Assembly (NCBI GenBank): GCA_963666285.1
Contig: OY762711.1
Strand: one strand, 5' to 3'
Length of the DNA: 64,000 bases
DNA from: Sedimentisphaerales bacterium
Lineage (GTDB): Bacteria > Planctomycetota > Phycisphaerae > Sedimentisphaerales > SM23-30
The notes below the pieces were generated by a model. It saw only the letters and a list, made by a program, of their open reading frames with translations. It was not told where the DNA came from and made no database searches. The translations under genes were made by a program, and so were the position numbers. Positions 14,790-55,680 of the stretch are shown piece by piece (position 1 is the stretch's first letter; each line of letters begins with the position of its first letter).

Positions 14790-14933
14790 CCCTGCAACAC
14801 TTTGAATTTAAACAAAACGTGAGACGATAGACGAATACCTTAATTTTTTACTTCACTATTCGTTTTTCACTTAATCGGCCCTGTTCAAGCCTTTGCGTAT
14901 AATGTTGAACAGTTAAAAGTGCGATATCGCACT
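14790..14933. repeat. Dispersed structured repeat, copy 1
   Basis: Shares CCTGCAACAC and CTGTTC..GCCTTTGCGT.TAATGT.GAACAG..AAA.GTGCGATA.CGCACT with 20904-21078 and 55494-55680. Confidence 0.9.
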
Positions 14934-14968
14934 CCAATAGATTTATTACTAATTATGGAGCTTGATAA

Positions 14969-17263
14969 ATGATTATTTACCCTGGCATCAAACGAGTATA
15001 TTTACCATTATTTCTGACAGTTTGCTTACTGCTGGTAATTGTGCCGTGTAACGCCTCTGATCTGCTGAAATATGTCAATACGCTTCAGGGGACAAATTCT
15101 GAAGGTTCTTACAGTAACGGTAATACTTATCCCACCATTGCAGTTCCTTATCCGATGAGTTCGTATTCTGCCCAGACCGGTAAAAATGGTCACGGCTGGA
15201 AATACCAGTATTCAGCAGATACTATCCGCGGGTTTCAACAGGTTCACCAGTGCAGCCCATGGGTCAACGACTATGGTGTATTCTCGCTCATGCCGATACT
15301 CGGCAAACTAGTTGTAAATGAAGATGAACGTGCCAGTGCTTTCAGTCATGACAACGAAATAGCCAAACCTCACTATTACAGTGTTAAATTAGATAATGGC
15401 GTAAAAGTAGAGATATCTCCTACTGAACGTTGTGGTCAAATGCGTTTTACTTTTCCGAAAGGGGACCTGGCATATATTGTCCTGGACGGATATACCAGGA
15501 ATAGCCAGGTTAAAATCGATACCGAAAATAATACCATAACCGGATATGTCCACAATGGCATCTTGGCACCGGGTAAATACAAAAACTATTTTATCATCAA
15601 ATTCGATAAGCCGATCATTTCATATGGTACCTGGGAAAATCGAAAAAATACTATCGCAAAAGGTAATGCCTGTGCCGAAGGTGAAGGAGCGAGTGCATAT
15701 GTAGAGTTCCATAATGGTGTTACCGTACAGGCTAAGATCAGTTCTTCCTATATCAGTCCTGAACAGGCAGAGGTTAATTTTAACCGTGAAATCGCCGGCC
15801 ATAAATCGCTCGAAGATACCAGAAATGCTGCTGCTGAACTTTGGAGCAATCTGCTCAATCGTATTACTGTTGAAGGACAAAGCGAAGATGATAAGGCAAC
15901 TTTCTATTCTTGTATGTTCCGTGCAAATCTATTCTCTCATAAATTCTATGAGATAGATAAAGATGGCAATCCATATTATTTCAGCCCTTATGACGAAAAG
16001 ATACATGCTGGCTATATGTATACCGATAACGGTTTCTGGGATACTTTCCGCAGCCAGTTTCCTCTTACCAATATTCTGCATCCGACTCTGCAGGGCCGTT
16101 ATATGCAGTCGCTGCTCGATGCCCAGCAGCAGTACGGCTGGTTTCCAACCTGGTCTTGCCCCGGTCCGTCCGGCATCATGATCGGTAATCACGCTATTTC
16201 CCTTTTGACCGATGCCTGGGTTAAGGGTATCAGAAACTTCGATCCGGAACAGGCCCTGGAAGCATATCTCCATGAAATTACCGGCAAAGGGCCTTGGGGT
16301 GGTTCAAACGGTCGTGAAGCTCATAAAGAGTATTTCGAGCTTGGTTACATCCCTTACCCGATTGTTGGCGAAGCTACCGCTAAAACCCTGGAATATGCCT
16401 ATGATGACTTCTGCGGTTATCAGCTGGCCAAAGCCGTTGGTAATGAATTCTATCAGGAGGTTTTTGCCCGCCAGATGTATAACTATAAAAATGTCTGGGA
16501 CCCTTCTGTTGGCTTTATGCGCGGCCGGTTAAAAGACGGCAGCTGGCGGCCGAACTTCAACCCGTATGAGTGGGGCGGTCCTTTCACCGAAGGTAATTCC
16601 TGGCAATATACCTGGTCTGTCTTTCACGATATACGCGGGCTGATAAATCTGATGGGTGGCGAAAAAACTTTTGTCGAGAAGCTGGACGAACTGTTTTACG
16701 GCAGTAACGAGTATGATGTCGGCAGTTACGGTCATGTTATCCATGAGATCAGCGAGATGCTTGATGCCGATATGGGCCAGTATGCACACGGTAATCAGCC
16801 GGTTCAGCATGTATCGTATCTTTATACTTTCGCCCGTCAGCCTTGGAAGACCCAGCATCGTATCCGCGAGATTATGACTAAACTTTACAACGCAACCGAA
16901 AACGGCTATCCCGGCGATGAAGATCAGGGCGGCCTTTCCTCCTGGTATGTGCTTAGTGCTCTTGGCATATACAGTGTCTGTCCCGGCACAGACCAGTATG
17001 TCCTTGGCAGCCCGATGTTCGAAAAAGCTTCTATTACCCTCGAAAACGGTAATATCTTTACTATAGAAGCCAAAAACAACAGCCCCGAAAATGTCTATAT
17101 CCAGTCCGCTAAACTAAATGGCAGGGATATCACCCGTAGCTGGATTACTTATGACGAGATCAGCAAAGGCGGTTTACTTCAGTTCGTTATGGGTAACAAA
17201 CCTAACCGGCAGCGAGGTATAAACGACGAAGACCTGCCGTTTTCTCTTACCCCTGTTAAATAA
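14969..17263 (+). CDS. GH92 alpha-mannosidase
   Basis: GNTYP, GFWDTFR, MIGNH, TLEYAYDD, FTEGNSWQY, GQYAHGNQP and GDEDQG motifs; signal peptide. Confidence 0.95.
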   Translation: MIIYPGIKRVYLPLFLTVCLLLVIVPCNASDLLKYVNTLQGTNSEGSYSNGNTYPTIAVPYPMSSYSAQTGKNGHGWKYQYSADTIRGFQQVHQCSPWVNDYGVFSLMPILGKLVVNEDERASAFSHDNEIAKPHYYSVKLDNGVKVEISPTERCGQMRFTFPKGDLAYIVLDGYTRNSQVKIDTENNTITGYVHNGILAPGKYKNYFIIKFDKPIISYGTWENRKNTIAKGNACAEGEGASAYVEFHNGVTVQAKISSSYISPEQAEVNFNREIAGHKSLEDTRNAAAELWSNLLNRITVEGQSEDDKATFYSCMFRANLFSHKFYEIDKDGNPYYFSPYDEKIHAGYMYTDNGFWDTFRSQFPLTNILHPTLQGRYMQSLLDAQQQYGWFPTWSCPGPSGIMIGNHAISLLTDAWVKGIRNFDPEQALEAYLHEITGKGPWGGSNGREAHKEYFELGYIPYPIVGEATAKTLEYAYDDFCGYQLAKAVGNEFYQEVFARQMYNYKNVWDPSVGFMRGRLKDGSWRPNFNPYEWGGPFTEGNSWQYTWSVFHDIRGLINLMGGEKTFVEKLDELFYGSNEYDVGSYGHVIHEISEMLDADMGQYAHGNQPVQHVSYLYTFARQPWKTQHRIREIMTKLYNATENGYPGDEDQGGLSSWYVLSALGIYSVCPGTDQYVLGSPMFEKASITLENGNIFTIEAKNNSPENVYIQSAKLNGRDITRSWITYDEISKGGLLQFVMGNKPNRQRGINDEDLPFSLTPVK

Positions 17264-17267
17264 TATA

Positions 17268-17301
17268 AAACTGACCGATCAAACTGACCATCGGTCAGTT
17301 T
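17268..17301. terminator. Inverted repeat between convergent genes
   Basis: AAACTGACCGAT ... ATCGGTCAGTTT, with an extra AAACTGACC copy in the loop. Confidence 0.5.
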
Positions 17302-17399
17302 GAGTAATATACCAAATCCTCTTTGGTGTTATTAACGCCATCCTGATGTTTCTGGTAAATGGGAGTACCGGAAACATCAATTTTTTTGCATTTTTCTCT

Positions 17400-18938
17400 T
17401 TATCTGCTGGCAGTTATATCATCCAGCTCTGATATATACGGTGAATTGCTGTTTTGCCCCTGGTCGTCTTTCATGTTTTCACCCAGACTGTATAGTGTAT
17501 ATCCGGTAGCTGTTCGTTTATATGCCAGGTCTTGTCCGGTAAACGGATCGGTCACTTGTCCTTTGTCCAGGTAACCGGATAGCACAAGTGAGTCTAAATC
17601 TAAAGGGTATGTATATTCCTTTTTAGAATATTCCAGTGCGGCCGCTACGGTAACTACCTGCTGTTCGGTATTTGTCTTGTATTCCAATGTAATCGAGCGG
17701 CTTATACTAGGCATTATTATTGATGGGATATATTGATGCAGGATTTTTGGCATTTTTTCCGGTGAGACTTCTTTTACTGGATTTCCTTCAAGCAGAGGCA
17801 TATAGATTTCTAATGCCTCCTTGCTGTTAGACAAGCTGTATTTATCGTCCCATGTATCGGTCTGGCGGATTTTATTTCTGTAAGATTCATCTGACTGGAT
17901 AATATTGTCAAGTTTGTCAAAATGCTGGTTCACCTCCTCCAGCAGCTGGTTCCAGTTTACGTATTTGGCAACGTCATTGTCAATTGTGTCGGCATACAGG
18001 TTTTTTTCTTCATCGTAATCTCCACCTGTAATTTCTGACAGGAACATTTCTACCTGGCTGAAACCATATTGATGCATATTGATTATATAGTCCAGTATAG
18101 CGTACCTTTCAGCTGAAATGCTCAGTTTTGCCGGTTCAAGTTCTTGCATATAGTCATAGATTTCTTTTAAGAGATCCCTGTCTAAATTGCCGCTGGTTAG
18201 CATCAGCTTAGTTGAATTAAGTGCCAGGTTTCTTATGCTGAAGCTTACAATGCAGACTAGCAGGCTTTCCTCTTTTTGATGCATAATGGAACCGATATGA
18301 TATATTGTTTTGATTTCTTTCCAGGCTTTTTCATATTGTTGTTCCGCGATTAACATATTTGCCTGTGTAGCCAGTATAGAGCATAGCTCTTTTATCTCGC
18401 TAAGGTATGGAAACAGCATTAGTGCCGCCATACTGTTTTTATCTTTCGACTCATCGACCAGGTATGGCATATAATACTTGTCTTTTCCCACGATAGTTGA
18501 CAATCTGGAAAGCGGTTCTGAATTACTATCCAGCCATTTTGCCATTTCAGGGTGCTGCTCTCTGGTCCATAGTTTTTCCCTGGCTTCATATGTTATGCCA
18601 TTTATTTTGTTGGGTATTATAAGAAAATTACCTGTTGGCTTTTTTATTCCCAATTTATCAAGAAACTCTTTACTGTTATCAATTGCTATATTAACTGGTC
18701 CGAGAATTTTCAGTATCGATATAAAAGCATTATTATCCGGTGTTACACCTTCGCTGTTGATCTTATTTATAGCTGCAACATAGTCGATTGTTCCATCTTC
18801 TCTCACCGGCTCTGTCAACCGTGTGGTATCATGCCCGATCTTTATTTTCTGCTCACTTCCGGCATAAGTAATTGAGACCACGCAAAAGACAGTCAGAACC
18901 AGGGCGGTTAATAATCGAATATTGTTTCTTGATAGCAT
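17400..18938 (-). CDS. Secreted or membrane-anchored hypothetical protein
   Basis: N-terminal hydrophobic segment, TT..T.P...DG.IDY and a C-terminal DPF.G..L.Y......LYS.G.N..DD.G motif. Confidence 0.85.
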   Translation of the reverse strand: MLSRNNIRLLTALVLTVFCVVSITYAGSEQKIKIGHDTTRLTEPVREDGTIDYVAAINKINSEGVTPDNNAFISILKILGPVNIAIDNSKEFLDKLGIKKPTGNFLIIPNKINGITYEAREKLWTREQHPEMAKWLDSNSEPLSRLSTIVGKDKYYMPYLVDESKDKNSMAALMLFPYLSEIKELCSILATQANMLIAEQQYEKAWKEIKTIYHIGSIMHQKEESLLVCIVSFSIRNLALNSTKLMLTSGNLDRDLLKEIYDYMQELEPAKLSISAERYAILDYIINMHQYGFSQVEMFLSEITGGDYDEEKNLYADTIDNDVAKYVNWNQLLEEVNQHFDKLDNIIQSDESYRNKIRQTDTWDDKYSLSNSKEALEIYMPLLEGNPVKEVSPEKMPKILHQYIPSIIMPSISRSITLEYKTNTEQQVVTVAAALEYSKKEYTYPLDLDSLVLSGYLDKGQVTDPFTGQDLAYKRTATGYTLYSLGENMKDDQGQNSNSPYISELDDITASR

Positions 18939-19198
18939 AACATTCTCTTCTGTTTTTATAGTATTCCAGAGATTAAATTACCCAAACGATAAGATAATTT
19001 TAGCGTACATCTTTTCTGATAGCAAATATTATATTAGGTATTTCAAACAGTCTGAACTTGCCGGTTTTTTTTGTTTTTAGGTGCTGCGGCAGCCTAAAAC
19101 AATGTTTTTGGACTTTTATAATCATGATCTGTCCCTACTTTTATATACATTTATCGATTTTATTGTACTTTGCCGCCTGTTTTTCCGATTATTTGACT

Positions 19199-19678
19199 AT
19201 GCTTGAACAAATATATAGTCAATATCCGGATTTACTGATAAGTATAAAAGCGATTTCTGTAGCCCTGCTTGTAGGCGGCATGATAGGTCTTGAACGGGAA
19301 AAGCAGCATAAACCGGCCGGTATTCGTACTAATATCCTTATTTGCCTGGGCGCGACTGTTTTCACCCTTATCTCTCGCCAGGCAGCTTTAGGCGATAATA
19401 GTGATCCAAGTCGTATTGTCGCCCAAATCGTTACCGGGGTTGGCTTTTTAGGGGCCGGGGCAATTATGAGGCAGGGTACAAGTGTCCAGGGGCTTACTAC
19501 CGCCGCTGAAATCTGGGTAGCGGCAGCTTTGGGAATCTGCTGTGGATATGAAAAATACCTTATGGCAATATTAGTAGGTGTTGTTACGATTATTGTTTTG
19601 GAAACATCACGTATTACCAGTAAACTTAACAAACCTCATCAGTCGCCAGACGCTCCGCAGGATCATAAATGCAAATAG
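19199..19678 (+). CDS. MgtC/SapB family membrane protein
   Basis: IGLERE...KPAGIRT, DPSRI.AQIVTGVGFLGAG.I and GLTTAA.IW. ATG 19199 is preferred over the ORF-track start at 19058. Confidence 0.92.
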   Translation: MLEQIYSQYPDLLISIKAISVALLVGGMIGLEREKQHKPAGIRTNILICLGATVFTLISRQAALGDNSDPSRIVAQIVTGVGFLGAGAIMRQGTSVQGLTTAAEIWVAAALGICCGYEKYLMAILVGVVTIIVLETSRITSKLNKPHQSPDAPQDHKCK

Positions 19679-19735
19679 CATACTTTTTCCCTAAGGAGGT
19701 GTGTACCCAATGATATTATTTCCTTCCAAGACCCT

Positions 19736-20782
19736 TTACCTGCGCAGAATTTGGATAATACGGTTGTAAATGACAATAGATGTCAATGTCGTGTTTCCAC
19801 CGCTTGTATTAACAAACTGAACTACGACAGTATCAATGTCCTTGTGATAACGTGCGATACTGTAGTATCCCGGCAGCAAACCAGTATGTTCATACTTATA
19901 AATTGAAGAATATATTGCCTGCTCATCATCATTCAACAATGAGCCATCATTTAACGCTCTCAAAAATATGCCGGTATCCTCTGCTGTAGCTACCATTGAG
20001 CCGCCAGGTTGAATGAAGTCATTTGACTTTATATCGTTCTCGTATCCTGCATAGTACCCACTCATAACATCGGCTAAATCAACCTCGCTAAGCAGGCTGT
20101 AAGTATTGTTCAATTCAAGCGGCTTCAAAATCTCATTTTTGATATATTGGTGATGACTGTACCCCAGTGTTTTATCGAGAATTTCACCAATCAGCAAGTA
20201 ATTCGTATTGGAATAACTGTATTTTTCATCTGGCTTAAAGTCTGCTGGCATATCCAGTACCAGTTTGAAGGTTTCGCTATTTTCCTTATATGGGCTGGCC
20301 CATGGATAATCAGGGTGGTCGGAATAGTTGGGAATGCCGCTCCGATGCTGCAGCATCATTTTCAGGGTTATCTGACCTGCATTTTCAATCCTTCCGGCAA
20401 ACTCTGGCAATAGCTCGGTAAGTGTATCGTCCAGTGCCAGGCTTTGGTCGTTGACCAGTTTCGCTGTAGCTGCGGCAATATACAGTTTGCTGATGCTGGC
20501 TATCTTGAACAGGGCATGCGGATCGGCCGGCACTTGATGCTCTCGGTTTTTCCAGCCGGCGGCATACAGAGCCGGTGGTTTACCCGGTTGATCTACATAA
20601 ACTATAATGCCGTCCAGCCCATAATCTACTGCATCATTCACCTGCTCCTGCACCGTATCCGGCAATGGTGCTAACCATGCCAGTATCCCATCCCATGGAG
20701 GAAATATCACGACACAGGTTATTGCCACGAGAGGCATGATTATCCTGAGTATTAGTACTATGCGTTTCTTCTTATTTGACAT
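19736..20782 (-). CDS. Serine hydrolase, beta-lactamase/class C-like family
   Basis: F.IASISK (SxxK), L.H.SG, YSYSNTNY (YxN) and HTG. Confidence 0.92.
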   Translation of the reverse strand: MSNKKKRIVLILRIIMPLVAITCVVIFPPWDGILAWLAPLPDTVQEQVNDAVDYGLDGIIVYVDQPGKPPALYAAGWKNREHQVPADPHALFKIASISKLYIAAATAKLVNDQSLALDDTLTELLPEFAGRIENAGQITLKMMLQHRSGIPNYSDHPDYPWASPYKENSETFKLVLDMPADFKPDEKYSYSNTNYLLIGEILDKTLGYSHHQYIKNEILKPLELNNTYSLLSEVDLADVMSGYYAGYENDIKSNDFIQPGGSMVATAEDTGIFLRALNDGSLLNDDEQAIYSSIYKYEHTGLLPGYYSIARYHKDIDTVVVQFVNTSGGNTTLTSIVIYNRIIQILRR

Positions 20783-20903
20783 TTATACTTACCTTTAACT
20801 ATTGCCTGACATTGATTATACTGATAGTCTTTAATGTTACATCTGTGTGATGAATGATTATATGGCCTGACATCTGCCAAATTCAGATAAAAACATTATG
20901 TTG

Positions 20904-21078
20904 TAGTTTACTTTCGCAGTTTTTAAGTTGCAATAACGAAGTGCCTCTGGTAAATCGCCTAAAAGGGCCTTCCTGCAACACCTTAATTTTTCATTTTTCA
21001 CTATTCGTTTTTCACTTAATTGGCCCTGTTCCGGCCTTTGCGTGTAATGTCGAACAGTCAAATGTGCGATACCGCACT
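20904..21078. repeat. Dispersed structured repeat, copy 2
   Basis: Contains blocks ACTTTCGCAGTTTTTAAG, CGCCTAAAAGGGCCTTCCTGCAACAC, CTGTTC...GAACAG and GTGCGATACCGCAC. Confidence 0.9.
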
Positions 21079-21188
21079 TGTATATCCGGGAATAAAATCA
21101 AATCAGGTTTGATTTGGCAGTCAATATTCCCTATTATATGCTATATAAGGTTCATATAGATTTTTTTTAATGGCTACAGGAGATTTTT

Positions 21189-21731
21189 ATGATTCCGGCG
21201 GGATATATGGCCAAAAGGGTAGTTAGTACACCAGAATGGCTTAAATCTGATGATGTGTTAGATATTTACTCGGTAAGTAGTTGTATATCTACTAACTTTG
21301 CTGACTATGTCAATTATTGGAAGCACAATGGATACTGGCTTTTTGATTCGCCAGAAATTATCTTAAAAATTGCAAAAGATAATTCGATTGATATGAGTGG
21401 TGTTAAGTTATTTTATTATGAAATCTATGAGCTTGAATATGATGAAGATGACAATCACTGGCATGAATATGAACCGGGAAAATCGTTTGACACAGATGTC
21501 CAAATACCTAGGGATAAAGTACTCGAAGGTTTTGATATAGTATCTTTTGGGGCTCGAAGTTGTGCTGAATGTTCGCCACTGTCGTGTAACGGGCTGGCAG
21601 ATGAAATCAAAACCAACCAGCATTGTTTATTAAGCTCATTTGATAAAGCAAAACAATGTTTGGAAACCGGGCTGTTTAAAAACTCAGAGCCTGGACCTTA
21701 TAGGATATTTGCCGTTTATTCTTTGGTATAG
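21189..21731 (+). CDS. Hypothetical protein
   Basis: AGGAG RBS; 180 aa with YS.S.C.S, WKHN and ECSPLSCN, which look like conserved motifs. Confidence 0.8.
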   Translation: MIPAGYMAKRVVSTPEWLKSDDVLDIYSVSSCISTNFADYVNYWKHNGYWLFDSPEIILKIAKDNSIDMSGVKLFYYEIYELEYDEDDNHWHEYEPGKSFDTDVQIPRDKVLEGFDIVSFGARSCAECSPLSCNGLADEIKTNQHCLLSSFDKAKQCLETGLFKNSEPGPYRIFAVYSLV

Positions 21732-22121
21732 TGTACGGTTAATTTTTCCGGGGCAGAAAAAAACTTGAAATAATTCTTTCTGTTTTTAGAGAATCTAAAA
21801 ATAATTTGCCTAACAGCTAAACTGATATTTTTTTATTATAAAAAACTGTTTTTTCTAATATTGATAAATATTGCGTGATCTGTTTTTGGATTTTATTCGA
21901 TCTGTGCAAGCCACAATATTTCCACTGCAATACAAATGCAATAATCACAATCACAAGCCAATATCCGTAAAATCATCGAACTTAAATGATATTGGGTGCT
22001 TAAGATAATTTCCCGGGAATAACAGCAAATCAGGATGATTTGCTCATTATAACTAAAAGTAGGGGGGATTCGCCGGGCTCAGCTTGCCTGAGACCGGTTT
22101 GGCAGCAGGCCCTGCCTGCAA

Positions 22122-22205
22122 TGCGGATGAGAGGATTCGAACCTCCACTGAGTAACCTCAACTAGCACCTGAAGCTAGCGCGTCTGCCAGTTCCGCCACA
22201 TCCGC
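22122..22205 (-). tRNA. tRNA-Leu(CAG); CCA not encoded
   Basis: Minus strand reads GCGGATG..TGGCAGACGCGCTAGC-TTCAGGT-GCTAG, long variable arm, GGTTCGAATCC, CATCCGCA. Confidence 0.96.
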
Positions 22206-22218
22206 AACGGGACTGGGT

Positions 22219-22247
22219 ATTGTATTATCAATATATCTCTCTGTCAA
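22219..22247 (-). promoter_or_regulatory. sigma70 promoter of tRNA-Leu
   Basis: Minus strand TTGACA-17 nt-TACAAT, ending 13 nt upstream of the tRNA. Confidence 0.75.
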
Positions 22248-22493
22248 GACTTGTATTACAAAAAATAATATAATTATTTTCGCCAAAAAAAGAATTGTAA
22301 TTATTTACATATTTATAAATAATTAACTCAAGCTCCGCTTCATTTTACCGATATGTGTGGTAAGATAGGTAATCTGTGAGACCTGGACAGATAATTATAA
22401 CTGTAATGGTTTAGCAGATTGTTGTACTGAATTCTTACTACACTCTCTTAATAATGGAGTAGTTAAGATTTAATTGGAATTGGAAGGACCTGA

Positions 22494-23393
22494 ATGATGG
22501 CAGAGCATTTAGAGCAACAAATTGGAATGTCCGATAATTCAACCAGGCTGGCTTCGTTGCCGGGCAGGTTGGCTATTGTCGAAAAAATTATGGCTGAAGC
22601 GATCCGCGACCCGGAAGTCAGCTTGTTTCGCCCACGCGCCCAGTTTACTTTTTTCTGTGGTAATGACCCGGAAAAAGTTGCCGGCCATGATTTCCAGCTT
22701 GAAGTGGTCGGGCGATGCCTGGAGTGGTTTGTCTTCGATTATAAAATCCCTGATCTTTGCCAGACCCCGGCACAATACTGGTTTGCCAACAACTCAAAGA
22801 GACTGGATAAATCTGCCCGTCAGGATGCTGCTAACTGCCTGGACTATGTCCTTAGCATATTCGAGATTACCGAGGTAGACGATATCTCTGGTTTTGTCGC
22901 TGTCGATCTGCTCAGAAACGGCAGGGCATATTATGTCGATGAACATATTATTAATGATCAGCTTCAGCCCGGACAGATGCTGCTGGGACGGCTTTTCCCT
23001 CACCAGGAAAACTATTCTCTCTCCGGCATGGCGACTATTATGGATAGCCAGGCATGTTCACAGGTCAGGGCAATGATCAAATCCGGCAAACTCAGGCCCG
23101 ATAACCTTCTTCAGGATCTCGACGGCCTGGAACTGGAAAATTTATACGGTCGATCTCTTATGGGGCTCGATAAGCTGGATTCTGCTGAGCTGGAAACCAG
23201 GATAAGAAATTATCTTAGAGTTACTGATTCAAAAGTCAGTTACAGTGAACTGGTTGATCTGCTGGCGAATGCCAAAGACCCTATCGAAGGGGCTGTAACT
23301 TTCTGCCGTATGACACAAATTGAATGTCGCCACGAAATCGAACTTATTATTGCATTTCTAATGGGCCTCTGGTTCAAGATCAATGCTTTCTAA
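22494..23393 (+). CDS. Hypothetical protein
   Basis: 299 aa open frame with an RBS (GAAGGA) and WF.FDY, S.FE, DLL, GRL.P...LSG motifs. Confidence 0.85.
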   Translation: MMAEHLEQQIGMSDNSTRLASLPGRLAIVEKIMAEAIRDPEVSLFRPRAQFTFFCGNDPEKVAGHDFQLEVVGRCLEWFVFDYKIPDLCQTPAQYWFANNSKRLDKSARQDAANCLDYVLSIFEITEVDDISGFVAVDLLRNGRAYYVDEHIINDQLQPGQMLLGRLFPHQENYSLSGMATIMDSQACSQVRAMIKSGKLRPDNLLQDLDGLELENLYGRSLMGLDKLDSAELETRIRNYLRVTDSKVSYSELVDLLANAKDPIEGAVTFCRMTQIECRHEIELIIAFLMGLWFKINAF

Positions 23394-23458
23394 TCGGGCA
23401 GCCCAGAATGGCTGCTTCCGGTTTGTTATAAAATAGTCTTATTCATATTTGTTAAAAT

Positions 23459-23493
23459 AAATGGAATGGTAAAATATCTTACCATTCCATTTT
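23459..23493 (+). terminator. Hairpin, probable terminator
   Basis: AAATGGAATGGTAA-6 nt-TTACCATTCCATTT. Confidence 0.5.
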
Positions 23494-23732
23494 AACATTT
23501 TAAAATATGAGCTACAGTTATACGAATTTGTATAAGCTGCTTAAAAATATGTAGTTATGTGATTGTGGTGTGTTTTTAGGTCAGTCATTTTTAAAATTAA
23601 TATGTTAAAATAGAAAAAATAGGGATTTTGGCTAAACATTTTTTAACACTCCTTCCGATACCTTAATTGTCGCAAGTGATAACAATAAAAAAAGCAGAAT
23701 AAACAAAACTCTTTAACAGGAAGGACGCTATT

Positions 23733-24449: not shown

Positions 24450-24508
24450 TTATTTACCGATCGTGTGGATTGGTTTTATATGAATACGAACGTGTATTCG
24501 TCTTTCGG

Positions 24509-25381: not shown

Positions 25382-25407
25382 CGCTTATATTAGCATTTAC
25401 GAAATTC

Positions 25408-46249: not shown

Positions 46250-46473
46250 GTTTTTCTCCGTAATGATTTCCTAACATATTTCCAGGCAATAAGTTATACT
46301 TTAATTTATATGCTGGGAAATGTGAGTTGATCCAATTTCCCGGCCAACAATTAATCCATCAAATACCAGCTAATCATAATACCAGATAAGATAGCATTTA
46401 CCAAAGAAATATTTTCCTGAATTTTAGGTCGCATATTTCCCTAAGTATTATATATCTTAGCTTTTGATGTATC

Positions 46474-47868: not shown

Positions 47869-48339
47869 GGCCTCCTCCTAAAATTTCAAAAAGCTGAACA
47901 ACTCAAAGTACGCCTGAAAAGAAACCAGGAACGATCGTACTGGTGATTCAGAAATAACACCTTTCGATAAAATAAATTATAGCAAATCAGCTATGTCGAG
48001 TCAATATAGTCCGCGATATACTATCTTCTTGATTAAATCCATATTTAAACCGTTAAATTGCTCAAATTATATTAAATAATCACTATTAAAAAGTTCATCC
48101 TGCTGTTTAATTCCAGGTGTAAAATCTGTTTGAAAGTCAGACTGATAATAAAAATGTGCGATTTTTGTGCTAAAATCGCCTTTTTATGAAATCTGTAATT
48201 AACTTGATAAAGTGACTATGAGTCTGATATAATCAATTGACTTATTTTTATAAAATGAGTGTTTGTCGAGATACGTATTTTTTTTCAAAAATTCGGCATC
48301 ATAGTGTTTTAAGTGCAGAAATATTTACGGAAAGAGATT

Positions 48340-49746
48340 ATGACTAGAATTTCGATGCTGATTGGCTGTTTGTGTTTTTGTATTACCACTTTTACTTTTG
48401 CAGCAGGAGGAGACCTGGGTTTAAGTAAAGGAGCAAATGGTACTGATACCGCACCCTGGCTGATCGAAGATTTTGATGATTTCCAAGCGTTTTGCAATGA
48501 TACGAGCAAATGGTCCGGTGGTGTCTATACCCGCCTGGAAGCAGATCTCGATCTTGATCCGGCTTTACCCGGCAGGGCAGTTTATATTAAAGCTCCGATA
48601 GCCGGTGATGCAGACGAATCCAATTTTTACGATGGAATATCTTATGCCGGTGTATTTGACGGTAGCGGTCATGTTATTAGTAACTGTCAGATTGATGGCG
48701 GTGATTATTGCGGGCTGTTTGGCCGGATAGTATCAGGTAGTGAAATAAGTAATGTCAGGGTGGAAAATGCTGCCGTTACCGGCTCAGGTGAGTATATTGG
48801 CGGTCTGGCAGGTGAGAATAATTATGGTTCTGTAAGCTCGTGTTATTTTACTGGTTCCACTCATGGTTTTATTGGCACCGGCGGTTTGGTGGGAAGAAAC
48901 TATGGCAGTGTCATTGATTGTTTTTCTTCCGGTTCTGTGCAAAGCAGCTTTATGGCTGGTGGCCTTTTGGGTTTAAATTCCGGCAATGTTAGCAGCAGTA
49001 ATTCCTCATGCGATGTTTCAGGTGCCGATGTTGTTGGTGGATTGGTAGGTAAAAATTTCGCTGATATTAGTGAATGTTATTCATCCGGTTCTGTTATTGG
49101 TTCAGGCGATTATGCCGGCGGGTTAGTTGGCGTAAATGATTCTGGCAATATCAGCGTTTGTTATTCCAGTGGTTCGGTGCAGGGTGTCAATCAAGTTGGC
49201 GGCCTGGTTGGTGGAAACTCCGGTACTGTCAGTAATTGCTATTCTACATCCTCTTCCGATGGTAGTGATGATGTAGGAGGGCTGGTAGGTGAAAATTATT
49301 TCGGCACTGTCAGCTATTGTTATTCTACTGGTATTGTATCAGAAAATGGTGTTTACGGCGGTCTGGTAGGTATAAATTCAGGTAGTGTCAGCAACAGCTT
49401 CTGGGATATCGACTCCTCTGGCATTCTTGATCCGGAAGCAGGTGTTAGTGATACCGACGGTATGATTGGCAAAACAACAGCCGAACTTCAAACTGAATCT
49501 ACTTTTACCGAGGCCGGCTGGGATTTTGTGGTTGAAACTGTTAACGGAAGCGAAGACCTTTGGCGTATGCCGTATTTGATGCCGGGCTACCCGATATTAT
49601 CCTGGCAGAAAGATATTCCGGGCGATTTCGCTGGCGACTATTGCGTTGACCTTTTTGATGCCGAGGTACTCTCCGCCGATTGGCTGAATGTGTATGATTT
49701 TTCCGACCTGATCGATTTGACAGCTAACTGGCTGGCCGGGAAATAA
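48340..49746 (+). CDS. Secreted GLUG-repeat protein with a dockerin-like C-terminal module
   Basis: NGT...PWLIED, Y.GVFDG.GH.I and about eight GGLVG.N.G.VS.CYS repeats; ends AGWDF ... DIPGD.AG ... ANWLAGK. Confidence 0.9.
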   Translation: MTRISMLIGCLCFCITTFTFAAGGDLGLSKGANGTDTAPWLIEDFDDFQAFCNDTSKWSGGVYTRLEADLDLDPALPGRAVYIKAPIAGDADESNFYDGISYAGVFDGSGHVISNCQIDGGDYCGLFGRIVSGSEISNVRVENAAVTGSGEYIGGLAGENNYGSVSSCYFTGSTHGFIGTGGLVGRNYGSVIDCFSSGSVQSSFMAGGLLGLNSGNVSSSNSSCDVSGADVVGGLVGKNFADISECYSSGSVIGSGDYAGGLVGVNDSGNISVCYSSGSVQGVNQVGGLVGGNSGTVSNCYSTSSSDGSDDVGGLVGENYFGTVSYCYSTGIVSENGVYGGLVGINSGSVSNSFWDIDSSGILDPEAGVSDTDGMIGKTTAELQTESTFTEAGWDFVVETVNGSEDLWRMPYLMPGYPILSWQKDIPGDFAGDYCVDLFDAEVLSADWLNVYDFSDLIDLTANWLAGK

Positions 49747-49808
49747 AACAATTGTTCTTTGTGATGTTTATCTTTTAGAAATTTGAGTTATTAAAATTGG
49801 AGTTGAAA

Positions 49809-50588
49809 ATGAAAAAAATTATGGTTTGGGCAGTTTTGGTATTGCTGCAGCAAATATCCTCTGCTGCTGTCTGGGTAGAAGGTGGTATAATAAAATCCAA
49901 TTCGTCTGGACCGCTTGATTTGTATATCGGCTATACCCCTGAGTGCCGTGGAGATAAGTCTGGTTCATGGTTATACCCTCTCGATAGCTTAATAGAAAGT
50001 CTTCCTGATGACGCAGAAATAACACAAGTCAAATCTTCGATGTATTCATGTTTCTATCATCTTACATCGCCCACGGGAGATGGAGTATTAAAATTGCCGG
50101 GTGAAGGGTTTTCTACTCTATACGAATTATGTCCCGATTCCAGTTATGGGCTTATCGGCACATATGGGGCTTTTCTGGACACATATAAAGTTGTACATGC
50201 TCCTTTAGAATATCAGTTAGGACCGGGCCAGGGTGTTGAATTTATTGGCTATGAATTTATCCATCCATTGAGATCAGGTTTGTGGCAGGTTGGCGATGAT
50301 TTCTGGTTCGAAAGTGAGGATTTCGCTGAAAGATGTTATGATGGCTGGAGTATTGATGGTATTTCGGTTCCGTATAATGTAACGTTTGAATATCTTACTG
50401 AAATTATTGGTCTGGATTATGGCGAACATGAACTGAAATTATATAGAGAGTGGAATGTACAGGTAGGTGATGAATATTGGCCATATGAGGATTATGATAT
50501 TACAGCTATCACTATTGTCCCGGAACCTGTGACATTTTCACTACTGACATTTGGTATTGTAACCGTTATCCACAGGCAGAAATATTGA
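49809..50588 (+). CDS. PEP-CTERM surface protein
   Basis: Signal peptide; C-terminal VPEP + hydrophobic helix + HRQK. Confidence 0.85.
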   Translation: MKKIMVWAVLVLLQQISSAAVWVEGGIIKSNSSGPLDLYIGYTPECRGDKSGSWLYPLDSLIESLPDDAEITQVKSSMYSCFYHLTSPTGDGVLKLPGEGFSTLYELCPDSSYGLIGTYGAFLDTYKVVHAPLEYQLGPGQGVEFIGYEFIHPLRSGLWQVGDDFWFESEDFAERCYDGWSIDGISVPYNVTFEYLTEIIGLDYGEHELKLYREWNVQVGDEYWPYEDYDITAITIVPEPVTFSLLTFGIVTVIHRQKY

Positions 50589-50631
50589 ACAGGGTATTTT
50601 CGTTTGTTCTATAAAGACATTACTGATGTTT

Positions 50632-52845
50632 TTACTTTTCGAGTATCGTTCGAATATTCTCCGGGTCTGATATCGGTTCTTTACACTTATAGTCTTCACA
50701 GACATACAGCAGGGGACCATTGTCTGCGGGCTGCTGGTTTTGGGTATATGGTGCGATTGTTTCAATTTCAGAAGGTCCAGCCGGATGCGAAACTAAAACT
50801 TTTCTCGGCAGATATATGCCATGGATAGCCTTGAGCATTTCCTTGGCCCGTTCGCTCTGCCGGTCACCTGCCAGCACTATCTCGGTTGTCGGACCGATAG
50901 CATAATCAGCCGCGCACAAAAAGAAGCTGTATGCCGCCGGTGCCTTGGCAACTTCTCCCGAAAACCCACGCCGCAGCTGTTCGGCATAGTCTTCGTAGCA
51001 GGTATCGCCTGTTATGCGTCCCAGTATCAGCAGGTTCATAAACGCCGCCGAATTGCCCGACGGTATCGCACCATCATATAAGTCCTTCGTACGTGCGATC
51101 AGCTGCTCGCCGTCATCTGCGGTGAAGTAAAAGCCGCCGTTTCGCTCATCCCGGAACTTCTCCAGCATTACCCGGTTAATTGCGATAGCGTCTTTCAGAT
51201 GCTCTATGTCAAATCCTGCCTGGTACAGCTCCAGCAGCCCCCAGACCAGAAACGCATAGTCGTCCAGGTTTCCGTTAAACGCCGCCTGACCATCTCGGTA
51301 CCGATGCAGCAGTAAACCGTCCGGTTTTCTCAGCTTATTCTTGATAAAAGCGGCAGCTTTTGTCGCGGCATTATAATATTCAGGCTCGTTCAATACCGCC
51401 GACCCGCGTGCCAGGGCCGCTATCATAAGTCCGTTCCAGTCGGTAAGTATCTTATCATCCTTATGCGGTCGAAAACGCTTTTCTCGCAGCTCAAAAAGTA
51501 TCCTGCCTGCCTCGGCCAGTTTGCCTTGTATCTCTTCTAGCGGTATATCAAGCTCTCGTGCCGTCTGGTCAACCGATTTTGTCATATGCAGTATATTCCG
51601 GCCAGTCTGCCGACCAGTTGCCTCGTCGTGAAAGTTGCCTTTCGGATGACAGTTATACACATCTATCACCAGCCCGGCCAGATTATCCGGCAGTGCTTCA
51701 TATATCTCCGCCTCAGTCCAGACATAGAACTTGCCTTCTTCGCCTTCGCTGTCGGCATCTTCGCCGCAATAGAACCCGCCCGCCGGGTCCGTAAGGTCTC
51801 GCAGTACATAAGTGAATATCTCGCGGGCGATACCGCCATAATATTCATTGCCGCTTACCTGGTATAGCTCCAGGCAGACAAGTGCTATCATAGCCTGATC
51901 GTAGAGCATCTTTTCGAAATGCGGCAGCAGCCATTTACTATCGGTCGAGTATCTATGGAAACCGCAGCCCAGCTGGTCGAATATGCCGCCTTGACGCATC
52001 TTTGTTATGGTTGTCTCTGCCATTGTCAGCAGTTCCGTGTTACCTGTCCGGTGATACTGCCTCAGCAGAAACAGCAGATTGTGCGGTGTTGGAAACTTCG
52101 GTGATTCGCCAAACCCGCCGTTTACGTTGTCGTACATCTTCGTGAAATGTCCGGCAGCTGTTTCCAGTATTTCCAGGTTAAGCTCGATTACTGGTGTTTG
52201 CGATTGCGGCTGGTTTAGTGCCGCTATAATAGAGGCGGCGGATTTCTCGATCTCTTCCGGTTGCTCCTGACATACCTGCTGAACCTTTGGGATTAGTTCC
52301 AGCATTCCCATTCGTCCCATACGTGATGTCCTGGGTATATATGTTCCGGCAAAAAACGGCTTCTTATCCGGAGTCATAATGATCGTTAACGGCCAGCCGC
52401 CGCTGCCGGTCAGCATAGTACAAACCTTCATATAAACATTGTCTATATCCGGTCGTTCCTCACGGTCAACTTTGATATTGACAAACGACTGGTTCATCAG
52501 TGTTGCTACCGCGGCATCCTCGAACGACTCATGGGCCATCACATGACACCAGTGGCATGTGGAATAGCCTATTGAGAGAAATACCGGCCGGTTCAGTCGC
52601 CTGGCAGTCTCAAAAGCCTCTTCACACCATGGATACCAGTCCACCGGGTTGTCCGCATGTTGCAGCAAATAGGGGCTCTTTTCATTTGTCAGCCGGTTCT
52701 GGCGGCCAGTTTTCGTTACAGTTGAATTGTCAGGTTTATCATGCATAGGTATAGTAAGTGTTATTGCAGCTAACAAGGCCGCAATCAGTATATTTCTGTT
52801 AGTTATATTTGCTCCTGGCCGCATGTTATTGCCCTTTATCGGCAT
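50632..52845 (-). CDS. Thioredoxin domain-containing protein (YyaL/DUF255 family)
   Basis: [48 protein letters not shown] and DDKILTDWN. Confidence 0.96.
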
Positions 52846-53040
52846 ATATCAAAAGACCATATCAGGGTTGGTTGTCAGTTTTATTATAGGTTTGCTCGCA
52901 ATTGATAATCAAATCCGCGGTTTATTTGCTTTTTTTGTAACAAATTGTATTAGTTTGCGTCAATATTATGTATCTTGTATAATGTTTTTATGATTTCAGA
53001 AAAGTTGATGTAATATATTTGCCGGAAGGGGCGTATCGTT

Positions 53041-54642
53041 ATGAAGAATATTATTTTATCGCTACTGGTCATGGCCGTTCTTCCAGCTTATCTCTATGCT
53101 GTCGAAGTTACCGGCGACCTGGTAAAAGATCTTGGCCTTAAGCAGGCAACCGTCGAAGGAGCAACTATATTTTATGACCCTCGCTTTGAAAAACAGCTGC
53201 CGGTATTCGAAAAGATTTATCTGGACTATAGGGCAAAAATGAAAGCCGGGACAGGTTCTGGTGGTGCATTTTTTGAGACTTTCATTGCCAATAAAGATGC
53301 GATTCTTAAAGATATCGCCGGGATTGTCGGCGGTGATCCGAATGATGGATTAGTCACAGCTTCCGGCATGGAACAGATCAACAAACTCGGCTATGATCTT
53401 GCTATGCCGCTGACTGGTACCGGCAACAAAATATACCTGGTTATGCAGACCAGTACCAAGGAGTATCTACGCAGCGGCGGTAAGATCCCGAACATGCAGT
53501 ATGACAAGTCTTCGGATACCGCGTCTTATCAGTTTTTCTTTGAGTTAGGCAAGGATAATTCCTCGAACCAGGAACTGCTTTTCCCGATCGCTTCGCCCGG
53601 CAGGATCAAAGAGGTAGCCGGTTCTATCCTGTTTACTCTGCATGATAAGTTTGGCTCCGGTGGTACGGAAATGGACTATGTTATGATCCACGAGATAGCC
53701 GAGATGACTATTCTGCGACGGCTGAAATGTAACGATCCGTATATACGCTGGTTCTCAGATGGTTTTGCCAATGCTATTACCCGCGAGATGCTCAGGAAAT
53801 ATTTTACTCAAAAAGATGTCGACAGCTTTCTGGATACAAACTCCGCGGCCAAATATGACAGGCTTCGCAAAGAGGCCAACCTGCAGTATTGGATGAGCCT
53901 GAATTATGTTTCGACTAACGACTGGCCCGTTCCTGCCGAAAGCGAGCTTAGCCTGGCCCGCTACTGTTTCGCTACCGAACTGGCATTGCAGATAGTCGAC
54001 GAATTTGGCATCGATTGTGTAAGTAAGATCATTGACAGGCATATTGCTGAAAGGAATGCGAAAAATACCGGAACTATGCCGGCCATAATAGAAAAGGTTA
54101 CCGGCTTTAAGGTCAGCGAAAAAATGCAGCTGTATCAGAACTTTAAGAACTGGCAGGATGGTATTGCATATTACGACCAAAAGCTGGCCGGGATCGACCC
54201 GGAGAAAGAGCCCGATGATAGAATTTTCTATCTTATGCGAAAACTTGAACTGAAAGGGCAGCCATTTATGCCTGACGCCTTGTATATAAGGATGGAAATT
54301 GCTAATCTTCTGTACGACAGCGATCGAAAAGAATTTGCCAAAAGATTCGTCACCGATTTTGCCGACCATCTGTGCCGGTTTTGGGACGATAATATAAAAA
54401 CAGGCGGCAGGGAATTTGCAATCTTTTTCGCACTGGGAGTCGATGAGCCTGCTCTTGCCGTTAGGTATGCCGACGATATGCTGAAAGCTAACCCGGACCA
54501 TACCAACGCCATGACGGTGATTATGAAAACCACAGAAGACAAGGACCAGGCCAGCAAACTTGCCCAAAAGATCATTTCGCTGGAAAAAGATAAGGAAAGC
54601 TTCTGCTATAAGCAGGCCCAGAAAATACTGGAAGAAAAATAA
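53041..54642 (+). CDS. Secreted hypothetical protein with a zincin-like HExxE motif and a TPR-like tail
   Basis: Signal peptide; IHEIAE ... RWFSDGFAN. Confidence 0.85.
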   Translation: MKNIILSLLVMAVLPAYLYAVEVTGDLVKDLGLKQATVEGATIFYDPRFEKQLPVFEKIYLDYRAKMKAGTGSGGAFFETFIANKDAILKDIAGIVGGDPNDGLVTASGMEQINKLGYDLAMPLTGTGNKIYLVMQTSTKEYLRSGGKIPNMQYDKSSDTASYQFFFELGKDNSSNQELLFPIASPGRIKEVAGSILFTLHDKFGSGGTEMDYVMIHEIAEMTILRRLKCNDPYIRWFSDGFANAITREMLRKYFTQKDVDSFLDTNSAAKYDRLRKEANLQYWMSLNYVSTNDWPVPAESELSLARYCFATELALQIVDEFGIDCVSKIIDRHIAERNAKNTGTMPAIIEKVTGFKVSEKMQLYQNFKNWQDGIAYYDQKLAGIDPEKEPDDRIFYLMRKLELKGQPFMPDALYIRMEIANLLYDSDRKEFAKRFVTDFADHLCRFWDDNIKTGGREFAIFFALGVDEPALAVRYADDMLKANPDHTNAMTVIMKTTEDKDQASKLAQKIISLEKDKESFCYKQAQKILEEK

Positions 54643-54644
54643 AT

Positions 54645-54896
54645 ATGGCTATGAACTGGAAAAAAGAACATTCAGATGAAATATTATATCGAATACCTGT
54701 ATTTCATGTAGTTAGTTTTTTTTGCAGTATAATTATGTGCCGTGAAGCTGTATATTTTGGTTTCTTTTTTGCAATACTGGCCGCAATAGTTTCGATTCGT
54801 AATCTAAAAAAAAGCAGTAAATGGAGGTTGGCTGAGTTTGTTTTATTGAGTTTTGCTGTTTTATTAGCAATAGGCTATTGTATAGAGATGGGGTAA
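54645..54896 (+). CDS. Small membrane protein
   Basis: Starts 2 nt after the upstream stop; three hydrophobic segments. Confidence 0.55.
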   Translation: MAMNWKKEHSDEILYRIPVFHVVSFFCSIIMCREAVYFGFFFAILAAIVSIRNLKKSSKWRLAEFVLLSFAVLLAIGYCIEMG

Positions 54897-55035
54897 TTAT
54901 AACTGATTTGAAAATGATTATTATCGCTCAAGTGTGAATTCTAGGTTTAAAGTAATTATTACCTCATATTATGCCGAATGTTATGTTAGTTTGAAATCAG
55001 TAACAGTGGTGATAAATGTGAGGTAAATACAATTT

Positions 55036-55356
55036 ATGGTTGATCAATCTTCAGTAAAACCTATCCCGATATCTCTAAATGCAGTTATTTCGCTTATTTT
55101 GAGTGTTTTTATAGCTTCAACTGCAGTTATCACGCTTTTTACACCTTTTGGCTCTGAGGGTTCGTTAAATTTTCTGCTTTTTTGTGGCCCTGGTGTGGTC
55201 TTAGTTTCTATTCTCTTGGCTATAGCAGCTCTTTTACAGAGATTATTTGTAGCAAGAAAGCTTTGGTGGCTGGCATTTATCAGTATCTTAATGGCTTTGG
55301 CTGGCTTACTGTTAAGCTTTGCTTGGATAGGTTCCGCGGCGTGTAATGCGGCGTAA
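55036..55356 (+). CDS. Small membrane protein
   Basis: GAGGT RBS; three TM segments. Confidence 0.7.
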   Translation: MVDQSSVKPIPISLNAVISLILSVFIASTAVITLFTPFGSEGSLNFLLFCGPGVVLVSILLAIAALLQRLFVARKLWWLAFISILMALAGLLLSFAWIGSAACNAA

Positions 55357-55450
55357 GTTCTGGAAAGTGTGTTATAAAAGTCTTGAATTTGCAGTTTTTA
55401 CTGCAAACTGGCTTAGTAAAAGATAGTTTATAAAATGATAAATTACATAT

Positions 55451-55481
55451 AGACCGCTCGGCGAACCCGGGCGGTTTTTTT
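55451..55481 (+). terminator. Intrinsic terminator
   Basis: AGACCGCTCGG-loop-CCGGGCGGTTT plus a T-run. Confidence 0.8.
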
Positions 55482-55493
55482 ATGTAACTATTT

Positions 55494-55680
55494 TAGTTAA
55501 CTTTCGTAGTTTTTAAGATATAAAAAACGCCTAAGAGGGCCTTCCTGCAACACTTTGAAATAAATATACTTTCGAGAATTAGCTCGGAAATGCAATTAAA
55601 TGAAAAGTCTTTTATTCACAAGGTTCTGTTCCGAGCCTTTTGCATGTAATGTTGAACAGCCAAAAGAGCGATACCGCACT
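55494..55680. repeat. Dispersed structured repeat, copy 3
   Basis: Contains ACTTTCGTAGTTTTTAAG, CGCCTAAGAGGGCCTTCCTGCAACAC, CTGTTC...GAACAG and GAGCGATACCGCAC. Confidence 0.9.

Follow-up and report, generated by a model that had tools for sequence, protein, structure and literature searches.

A gene-less miniature inverted-repeat transposon family of fixed internal layout in Sedimentisphaerales and its likely IS701-type mobiliser

The repeat that occurs three times in the window, the 64,000-nucleotide stretch of Sedimentisphaerales DNA analysed here, is almost certainly a gene-less miniature inverted-repeat transposon (MITE), and an IS701-type transposase is very likely its mobiliser. As a whole, the best explanation, to which we assign a probability of roughly 85%, is a MITE that duplicates 5 bp of its target, is mobilised by an IS701-type enzyme, and carries phased central sites that are probably bound. 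An IS701-family DDE transposase, either the one described below or a close relative, would move the MITE in trans. The same transposase, rather than a host protein, would also bind a central pair of terminal-like sites, and this binding would hold length and spacing in helical phase, resulting in two size classes. That the central sites are transposase-bound and phased is the more tentative part of this account, somewhat short of even odds on the sequence comparisons presented here. A preliminary description, made from the window alone, had named a non-autonomous mobile element as its third option, and this option was borne out by copy number, 5-bp target-site duplications (TSDs), empty sites, and a partner insertion sequence (IS).

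The three repeats reported in that description, all intergenic, in the same orientation, and sharing blocks A, B, and C, are present in the sequence (Table 1), and it is confirmed that they lie far beyond chance. They matched a profile built from them with E values of 3e-45 to 4e-52, which are self-matches by construction, and copies 1 and 2 shared 82 nt at 90% identity. Contig loose ends accumulated at 20904-20905 and 21077-21078, at the limits of copy 2. The flanks of copy 2 were not alignable in the three other genomes of the genus, in which its empty site was sought, and no empty allele of copy 1 or 2 was found among the joints listed for three runs (contigs only).

Table 1. Positions of the three MITE copies and their parts in the window
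Feature	Coordinates	Strand	Remarks
Copy 1, MITE with type-B middle	14791..14932	-	142 bp; left end intact at 14932; truncated, without right end
Copy 2, complete MITE	20906..21077	-	172 bp; shortened type-B middle and 18-bp right insert
TSD TTGTA of copy 2, first copy	20901..20905	+	
TSD TTGTA of copy 2, second copy	21078..21082	+	
Copy 2 left terminal repeat	21059..21077	-	GTGCG-N4-CGCAC hairpin in its first 14 bases, then a T run
Copy 2 right terminal repeat (block A)	20906..20924	+	
Copy 2 optional 18-bp insert	20934..20951	-	found in 34 of the 104 full copies scored
Copy 2 type-B middle, 7-bp tandem units	20977..21021	-	related to a separate repeat cassette outside the MITE
Copy 3, complete MITE, plain (type-A) form	55496..55679	-	184 bp; flanks no longer duplicated
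Copy 3 left terminal repeat	55661..55679	-	
Copy 3 left inner motif, decayed CAGGGCC type	55622..55632	-	
Copy 3 central inverted pair, similar to terminal core ACTTTCG	55568..55591	.	10 bp apart
Copy 3 right inner motif AAGGCCCT (block B)	55536..55543	-	
Copy 3 right terminal repeat (block A)	55496..55514	+	

Instead of the three-copy element initially described, a profile search revealed a family of about 200-220 loci throughout the genome. The 278 matches at E ≤ 1e-3 were merged into 220 loci (196-220 merged loci, on both strands), and the reversed genome gave no match to the same profile at E ≤ 1. The family accounts for 34.5 kb of the 6.35-Mb genome (about 0.5%). Its members have sharp ends and inverted termini around the ACTTTCG core; the termini are imperfect repeats of 18-19 bp (GT-N4-TTTCGCA-N-TTTT), a length in keeping with the at least 10-15 bp expected of terminal inverted repeats. 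The copies carry no transposase gene and measure 71-374 bp (mode, 182), within the 50-800 bp given for prokaryotic MITEs (PMC11602168). Exact 5-bp TSDs were found at 51 of the 120 full paired copies, as compared with a mean of 1.9 and a maximum of 7 in 200 shuffles, and were lacking at the other 69, while duplications of 2, 3, and 4 bp remained at chance level among full copies. Two further sets of elements showed exact 5-bp TSDs in 28/48 and 17/31 cases. One copy (C1:5214283-5214464) lies inside another repeat, 19 paralogues of which represent empty sites with the flanks joined over a single 5-mer, and identical MITE copies occur at separate loci.

The variable insert of the preliminary description resolved into two recurring middle types, common to dozens of copies. 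The plain form of 180-182 bp includes the identical young copies, and the longer forms with optional inserts look like mosaics; 42 of the 120 copies measure 197-226 bp. Some of the optional inserts are short palindromes. Nearly all copies (115/119) lie outside long ORFs. A ten-base periodicity of copy length in this genome was significant on all copies; we do not claim it, because it was non-significant on distinct lengths (P about 0.19). A literature search by title and abstract start retrieved no paper on this MITE family, and the supplements of PMC11602168 and PMC2266710 may hold its elements or the IS subgroup described below.

The window contains no transposase, as had been remarked, but one is present elsewhere in the genome. 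The resident IS701-family IS is 1,426-1,427 bp long and occurs in eight copies, all with exact 5-bp duplications. Its 430-aa protein scored 286.5 bits (cut-off, 170) on NCBIfam NF049999, which models the IS701 subgroup of this element, did not reach the NF033540 cut-off (82.5 vs. 150), and exceeded that of Pfam DDE_5 (78.6 vs. 27). The terminal core and the duplication length are identical between IS and MITE, and the resident element is therefore the likely mobiliser. The T...A target bias of the MITE likewise matches that of the IS, and the right ends of the MITE match the IS left end at a mean of 15.3/19 positions (13.0/19 for the MITE left ends). Among 237 terminal-like ends in the genome, the only long duplicated pairs were the eight IS copies and one 423-bp element. 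Two long left-right end pairs were considered as an autonomous parent and rejected as products of chance; one of the two ended at the IS.

De Palmenaer et al. (2008; PMC2266710) describe the IS701 family as comprising elements of 1,400-1,550 bp with the end signature ---YACT-Y--YR, a 4-bp duplication in almost all members, and a usually incomplete Y-(2)-R-(3)-E-(6)-K motif. The partner IS agrees with the family in size (1,427 bp), in its NF049999 score, and in the end signature except position 4. Unlike most members so described, it has a Y-(2)-R-(3)-E-(6)-K motif that is complete (residues 317-331), and it duplicates 5 bp in 8/8 copies instead of the canonical 4 bp; it is therefore assigned to a 5-bp subgroup rather than to the canonical IS701 type of PMC2266710. 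Among the complete IS copies in metagenomes, only 11/55 had an exact duplication. This 5-bp-duplication subgroup and its miniature partners are described here from a little-studied group of planctomycetes.

Across the order Sedimentisphaerales, a terminal-pair search covering lengths of 136-226 bp recovered elements with these ends at 166-196 bp in 39 of the 401 genomes and at 136-165 bp in one. Two main size classes, of about 170 bp (11 genomes) and 179-186 bp (27 genomes), lie one helical turn apart, in addition to single elements of 138 and 193 bp. The difference of about 11-12 bp falls entirely within one arm, and no match was listed at 172-178 bp. The count of 0/401 at 197-226 bp is not evidence of absence, because the exact pattern also missed all long copies of this genome. 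A 32-nt pattern from the interior gave no match in the metagenome collection. The distance from the central inverted pair to the ends is 69 bp on one side and either 69 or about 81 bp on the other; in 27 of 43 elements, the best-scoring pair was one with half-sites 10 bp apart, lying 68-70 bp from one of the terminal cores. In seven elements of 169-171 bp, the central pair matched the core at 12-14 of 14 positions (0/60 shuffles as high), and the central half-sites of L319 and L320, both of the 170-bp class, were equal to it (14/14). Many 181-182 bp elements of other families matched at only 10/14, which was reached by 10-20 of 60 shuffles. The IS has no internal sites like this central pair. 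We consider this fixed geometry in relatives the unusual feature of the family, which probably reflects the grip of the enzyme.

Integron attC sites form same-strand arrays between cassettes and have no target duplication; MITE copies dispersed on both strands with 5-bp duplications rule out such a site. REP sequences and REP doublets, described as GTAG- or CGTC-tagged palindromes of 20-40 bp (PMC3733652), were also ruled out for a unit of 170-240 bp with terminal repeats and duplications. Bacterial MITEs are listed as including Correia/NEMIS, RUP, ERIC, and Nezha (PMC3733652), and in type II MITEs the similarity to the partner IS is said to be confined to the terminal repeats (PMC10969869). 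Like type II MITEs, the elements of this family are short, gene-less, intergenic, and high in copy number, with inverted termini, TSDs, and a partner IS in the genome. They differ in the asymmetry of their ends, which include a terminal hairpin, in a central inverted pair at fixed spacing that resembles the terminal core, and in two size classes one helical turn apart throughout the order.

The plant MITE mPing represents a PIF/Harbinger-type system. Emigrant/Lemi1 represents a pogo-like one (PMC1636448), and internal motifs that are bound by the transposase or tune mobility are reported for both (PMC1636448; PMC9921582). In these eukaryotic elements the internal sites were found functional by experiment, whereas the family here is bacterial and the role of its sites is putative. 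Internal eliminated sequences of Paramecium fall into size classes about one helical turn apart, which were read as a looping constraint on the excision complex (PMC3464196). Those sequences show many peaks over tens of thousands of elements, compared with two main classes here, each perhaps from one ancestor. Helical-twist experiments on the ends of bacterial transposons are a further parallel, and the 69-bp arm of the MITE is close to the minimal in vivo distance of 64-70 bp given for bacterial cut-and-paste transposons (PMC3464196).

As such, a MITE is an ordinary and familiar kind of selfish DNA. The present family offers a clean test of why certain MITEs reach copy numbers far above that of the partner IS, with one resident transposase (seven identical copies), variants one helical turn apart, and internal sites absent from the parent. 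One possible extension, slightly more doubtful than binding and phasing themselves, is that these elements form an ancient MITE lineage spanning the order, which developed a transposition enhancer of its own: two central core sites, 69 bp (or one more turn) from the ends, would join the termini in a phased four-site transpososome. Such an enhancer would explain how a 180-bp element came to out-copy its eight-copy parent about 25-fold, and the family would amount to evolution's own helical-twist experiment on a bacterial MITE.

The strongest competing account, unlikely in our judgement although it deserves serious weight, regards the symmetry and fixed length as relics of an inverted duplication of one IS end, inherited by common descent, with central sites that have no binding role. 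Similarity between the two arms extends past the termini in six of seven elements of 169-171 bp, at a level reached by 0-2 of 300 shuffles, and likewise in this genome's own family (3/300). A weak resemblance to the IS right end was noted at positions 36-70, counted from the right end of the MITE: 0/300 shuffles reached it for this genome's copy, and at most 50/300 did so in 12 of 13 representatives, with negative absolute scores. Family representatives may share one ancestor, because their identity (44-67%) exceeds that of shuffled interiors (mean, 42%; maximum, 49%). However, the spacers are near chance, yet motif positions and length are held within 2-3 bp, where neutral relics would be expected to drift through small indels. 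The one-arm difference between the size classes and the gap between them also argue against relics.

A host DNA-bending or regulatory protein, rather than the transposase, may instead bind the central and inner motifs, which we rate a little lower again. An IHF site is reported within a Correia element (PMC10969869), the inner CAGGGCC motif is unlike the terminal core, and the central pair of one large group is of the GTTCG type. Against this stand the central half-sites of the 170-bp class that equal the terminal core, and any candidate host protein is only hypothetical.

That another transposase or recombinase recognises the hairpin left end and moves the MITE, the IS701-like termini being leftovers, is improbable. 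It gains from the observation that no IS with a hairpin end was found: an autonomous element with a GTGCG...CGCAC left end was absent from 80 related IS loci, and none of the 131 fetched loci with this left-end pattern contained a transposase match. In addition, copies with a left terminal repeat broken by a 22-bp insert are still duplicated (18/43 vs. 33/77 in the rest), and G003, a relative assembled in one contig and 98% complete, has 10 left-end pattern matches and no close IS701 transposase. Transposase matches were detected in only two of five other MITE-bearing genomes, weak or fragmentary, and because several MITE-bearing relatives lack a found partner, IS loss or non-assembly must be assumed under IS701 mobilisation. 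On the other side, TSD length and target bias agree with the IS, sister elements whose two ends are both IS-type share the same size and central pair, the IS copies and the 423-bp element account for all long duplicated end pairs, and the one other multi-copy transposase checked has ends unrelated to the MITE.

Least probable is a minus-strand structured RNA (pseudoknot, ribozyme, or regulator) selected for its structure, the reading first favoured. The pairings first named, a hairpin, a CTGTTC/GAACAG stem, and complementarity over 6-7 bp, can be drawn in the three window copies, and the terminal GTGCG/CGCAC hairpin is indeed kept, with a double change in 10/120 copies; the pseudoknot did not survive. 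Among 91 copies scored of the 120, the stem showed no compensatory change. The strand argument (G-U on the minus strand, A-C on the plus) arose because only three copies were at hand: the fifth pseudoknot pair is mismatched in 45/91, in 44 as A-C, with G-U on the opposite strand. In an alignment of 21 sequences from diverged lineages, pairing in the pseudoknot helix was 50%. The proposed structure had 74% of cells paired there, which 4/500 shuffles reached, with a covariation score of 0.186 (11/500), but partners slid by two columns scored equally (0.188), and the invariant hairpin had been part of the search pattern behind the alignment. The consensus fold retained only eight pairs, with a covariation term of 0.08. 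Against 30 shuffles each, eight of 11 lineage representatives reached z ≤ -2 on one or both strands, although the opposite strand folded better in seven of the 11, and copy 3 had no advantage in folding over its shuffles (z, -0.49 and -0.71). Nested inverted motifs, tried as RNA helices, were 85% paired with 429/500 shuffles as high, and are therefore conserved motifs rather than conserved pairing. No Rfam match over any copy was found at E ≤ 5. These results retire a candidate pseudoknotted RNA. The left hairpin, whose stem is kept while its loop grows from 4 to 26 nt, permits a terminator-like reading; orientation to genes was nonetheless unbiased (34 vs. 40; P = 0.56, with simple ORF calls), contrary to the fixed orientation expected of a cis-regulator, and a terminator or promoter role was rejected on this ground. 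A promoter scan of copy 3 returned two sites, both outside the element, as compared with 1.4 expected.

The three copies lay at the positions given in the preliminary description, with mutual likeness far above chance, and the Rfam check it proposed returned no family match for any of them at E ≤ 5. The adjoining genes were mutually unrelated (PQQ-type propeller, GH92 hydrolase, beta-lactamase-fold protein, amino-acid permease, and unannotated ORFs).

Coordinates of the three copies and of other features (window positions, unless marked C1 for the chromosome of the window's genome, or L188 for a fetched locus)
Feature	Position	Strand	Remarks
Copy 1	14791-14932	minus, read from left (hairpin) end	right end missing
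Copy 2	20906-21077	minus, read from left (hairpin) end	TTGTA on each side
Copy 3	55496-55679	minus, read from left (hairpin) end	flanks without duplication
Strong terminator-like hairpin and T run	55451-55483	plus	just beyond right end of copy 3
Short near-perfect palindrome	17263-17310		at GH92 gene end; raised contig depth indicates further copies elsewhere
Short segment where contig depth is raised and loose ends occur	16008-16051		within GH92 gene; probably common to paralogous hydrolase genes
Three diverged 66-nt repeats	48790-49332		within ORF 48313-49746 at spacings of 318 and 159 bp; compatible with a protein repeat of 53 aa
MITE with empty site	C1 5214283-5214464		inserted within another repeat family
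Second multi-copy DDE element	C1 514313-515666		and at least 3 other places; ~1,340 bp; 432-aa open frame; 5 matches
AT-rich ~110-bp repeat	C1, e.g. 4257600-4257720		and ~40 other places; carries a small GC hairpin towards one end
Cassette of 7-bp tandem units, then short perfect palindrome	C1, e.g. 11989, 918122, 5616305		~90 places
Sister element (G014:C20)	L188 134-314		181 bp; IS-type tips at both ends; 5-bp duplication; perfect central palindrome

A profile of the three copies gave 278 matches in the window's genome at E ≤ 1e-3, which merged into 220 loci (196 at 1e-5), and none at E ≤ 1 in the reversed genome. The similarity began and ended at identical bases across all copies, and contigs of three sequencing runs diverged at the same boundaries. 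Both termini, the left (hairpin, GTGCG-N4-CGCAC) and the right, read inward as GT-N4-TTTCGCA-N-TTTT, and 120 of 122 left-right end pairs were less than 400 bp apart. Exact 5-bp target duplications flanked 51 of these 120 pairs, compared with 1.9 for shuffled pairing, and 83 when one mismatch was tolerated; duplications of 2, 3, and 4 bp were at chance, and those of 6 bp occurred in 10. The duplicated targets tended towards T-A-W-W-A within AT-rich DNA. Among 128 insertions tested (120 elements and eight copies of an IS701-family element), one had clear empty sites, in which 19 paralogues connected both flanks across one 5-mer, identical in 15 of them. Long ORFs cover ~84% of the genome, and 115 of 119 copies were not in them. 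These sharp inverted termini, 5-bp duplications, and empty sites bore out the suggestion of a non-autonomous mobile element, which is a new IS701-type MITE family of an already known kind. The MITE inserts with a 5-bp duplication, has precise ends, and was copied recently, identical 182-bp copies being present at three loci and identical 180-bp copies at two. Profile matches had their left-to-right strand on the lagging strand more often (158 vs 120, P=0.026), as counted from unmerged matches and a rough GC-skew origin.

Unpaired matches to MITE right ends revealed the partner IS, a 1,427-bp element. An identical 430-aa protein is encoded by seven copies; a further copy is at 91%, and there is one fragment. 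The protein scored 286.5 bits against the IS701 model NF049999 (cut-off 170) and also passed Pfam DDE_5. Its termini carry the ACTTTCGCA core also found in the MITE, and MITE right ends matched the IS left end at a mean of 15.3 of 19 positions, compared with 13.0 for MITE left ends. Exact 5-bp duplications flanked 8/8 full copies; because the available text of one source gives IS701 elements of 1,400–1,550 bp with 4-bp duplications (PMC2266710), the IS represents a 5-bp subgroup. In 80 related metagenomic IS loci the terminal core was kept (ends found: 72 left, 78 right), the tips GTAAAC, GTTAAC, and GTGAAC resembled MITE right ends, and none had the hairpin tip; 11 of 55 complete copies had exact 5-bp duplications. 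The transposase was detected in 16 of 41 related genomes and was not found in four MITE-bearing ones (G001, G003, G018, and G021), which counts against a simple partnership of MITE and IS. The IS is probably unassembled in G018, since its ends sit at contig edges; the single contig of G003 held no close IS transposase, and only two of five further MITE-bearing genomes had any transposase match. In IS copies from several genomes (L013, L014, and L011), long open frames of 403–471 aa overlap the transposase gene, antisense to it as well as in a second forward frame, and may be a by-product of codon bias. The ends of the second multi-copy DDE element differ from those of the MITE.

The left-end pattern retrieved the same MITE from other genomes, with record titles including Sedimentisphaerales, Phycisphaerae, and Pirellulales bins. 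With the right end sought freely to 2 kb, complete elements were mostly 179–186 bp, alongside a small number shortened by deletion or lengthened by nesting; in another genome, 278-bp and 367-bp forms (L047 and L053) have a further element nested inside the MITE and bounded by inverted ends of its own. Forty-eight distinct elements of 170–195 bp formed 11 clusters, 46–70% identical, with an inner CAGGGCC motif at position 50 or 51 in nine clusters; in every one of the 11, its inverse was 47–49 bp from the right end. A core-only search of 401 genomes of the order found terminal-core (ACTTTCG) pairs spaced 166–196 bp in 39 (none in the reverse control), 136–165 bp in one, and 197–226 bp in none, the exact pattern also missing the window genome's own copies of that length. 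Among the matches listed, elements were 169–171 bp in 11 genomes, 179–186 bp in 27, and 193 bp in one, with none at 172–178 bp; exact 5-bp duplications flanked 17 of 31 fetched. Cluster representatives in this order-wide set (170–182 bp) were 44–67% identical, compared with 42% for shuffled interiors.

In 27 of 43 elements, which are not independent and include one counted twice, the best ACTTTCG-like inverted pair was 10 bp apart, with 68–70 bp separating it from the terminal core on one side. The arm on the other side measured 69–70 bp in the short class and 79–82 bp in the long class (76 bp in one deleted copy). The central pair matched the core at 12–14 of 14 positions in the seven short elements and at 12/14 in the window genome's family, and singly only weakly in many others (10/14); the autonomous IS had no inward core at these offsets. 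The two arms of short-class elements were homologous to one another, which suggests that the elements arose when one end, perhaps the IS right end, was duplicated in inverted orientation. The sister element in L188 shares its genome with the hairpin-ended family.

From knowledge of the family, a DDE transposase would bind both MITE termini, excise the element, and insert it with a 5-bp stagger. The geometry suggests that the same protein might bind the extra central sites and aid the closure of a loop whose length is near the DNA persistence length, a constraint under which only lengths in helical phase would spread. In the available text of the sources, Emigrant has internal transposase sites (PMC1636448), mPing mobility is tuned by internal regions (PMC9921582), and Paramecium IESs show a 10-bp size periodicity, in a source that also cites 64–70 bp as the minimum for bacterial transposons (PMC3464196); each is a precedent there for one piece of this mechanism and none for this MITE family. 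The two size classes, each of maybe one origin, lend thin support to helical periodicity, and the fixed geometry could also stem from a host protein or from simple inheritance. Four core-like sites at fixed spacing order-wide set the MITE family apart as a variant deserving one clean experiment.

Optional modules brought 42 of the 120 copies in the window's genome to 197–226 bp: the left hairpin may carry a 22-bp insert, the region near the right end an 18-bp one, and the middle may be of an alternative type. All eight combinations occurred. The left insert was not clustered on the shared-core tree (28 changes, compared with a shuffled mean of 26, for 31 of 98 rows); this tree, however, has only 105 columns and its strong branches force just seven changes. 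Nearest neighbours shared the left insert in 7/10 cases and the right in 1/9. The simplest explanation of this mixing is gene conversion between copies, but the left insert does not fit neatly: at only 9 bp from the end it splits the terminal core, in copies that carry duplications as often as others.

The preliminary description had read the copies as a minus-strand, possibly pseudoknotted RNA, a reading that we rejected. The CTGTTC/GAACAG stem had no compensatory changes in the 91 scorable of 120 copies, and the fifth pseudoknot pair was mismatched in 45 of them, 44 being A-C, which is G-U if read on the plus strand. In an alignment of 21 sequences from diverged lineages, the pseudoknot helix was 50% and the stem 79% paired. 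By two measures, 4 and 11 of 500 column shuffles scored as high as the whole structure; the invariant left hairpin was part of the search pattern that collected these sequences, and a two-column slide scored equally high. The RNAalifold consensus retained eight pairs with no covariation gain. Copy 3 folded no differently from its shuffles on either strand; 8/11 lineage representatives reached z ≤ -2 on some strand, and 7/11 folded better on the strand opposite to that proposed, as expected for DNA rich in inverted motifs. The left hairpin is the one structural feature that holds up, with a double change (GTACG/CGTAC) in 10 of 120 copies and a stem kept when the 22-bp insert enlarges the loop. 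It looks like an intrinsic terminator, but copies between co-directional genes had no orientation bias (34 with vs 40 against) that would favour such a role.

Two other repeats touch the MITE. The ~110-bp repeat gave 43 BLAST matches at E ≤ 1e-5, none within the window; one MITE is inserted in it, and two of its copies are bordered, one by an IS701 copy and the other by a further MITE. The 7-bp-unit cassette is mostly outside the MITE, whose type-B middle, one of two recurring forms, is a piece of it; the cassette is reminiscent of repeats around four-helix-bundle genes.
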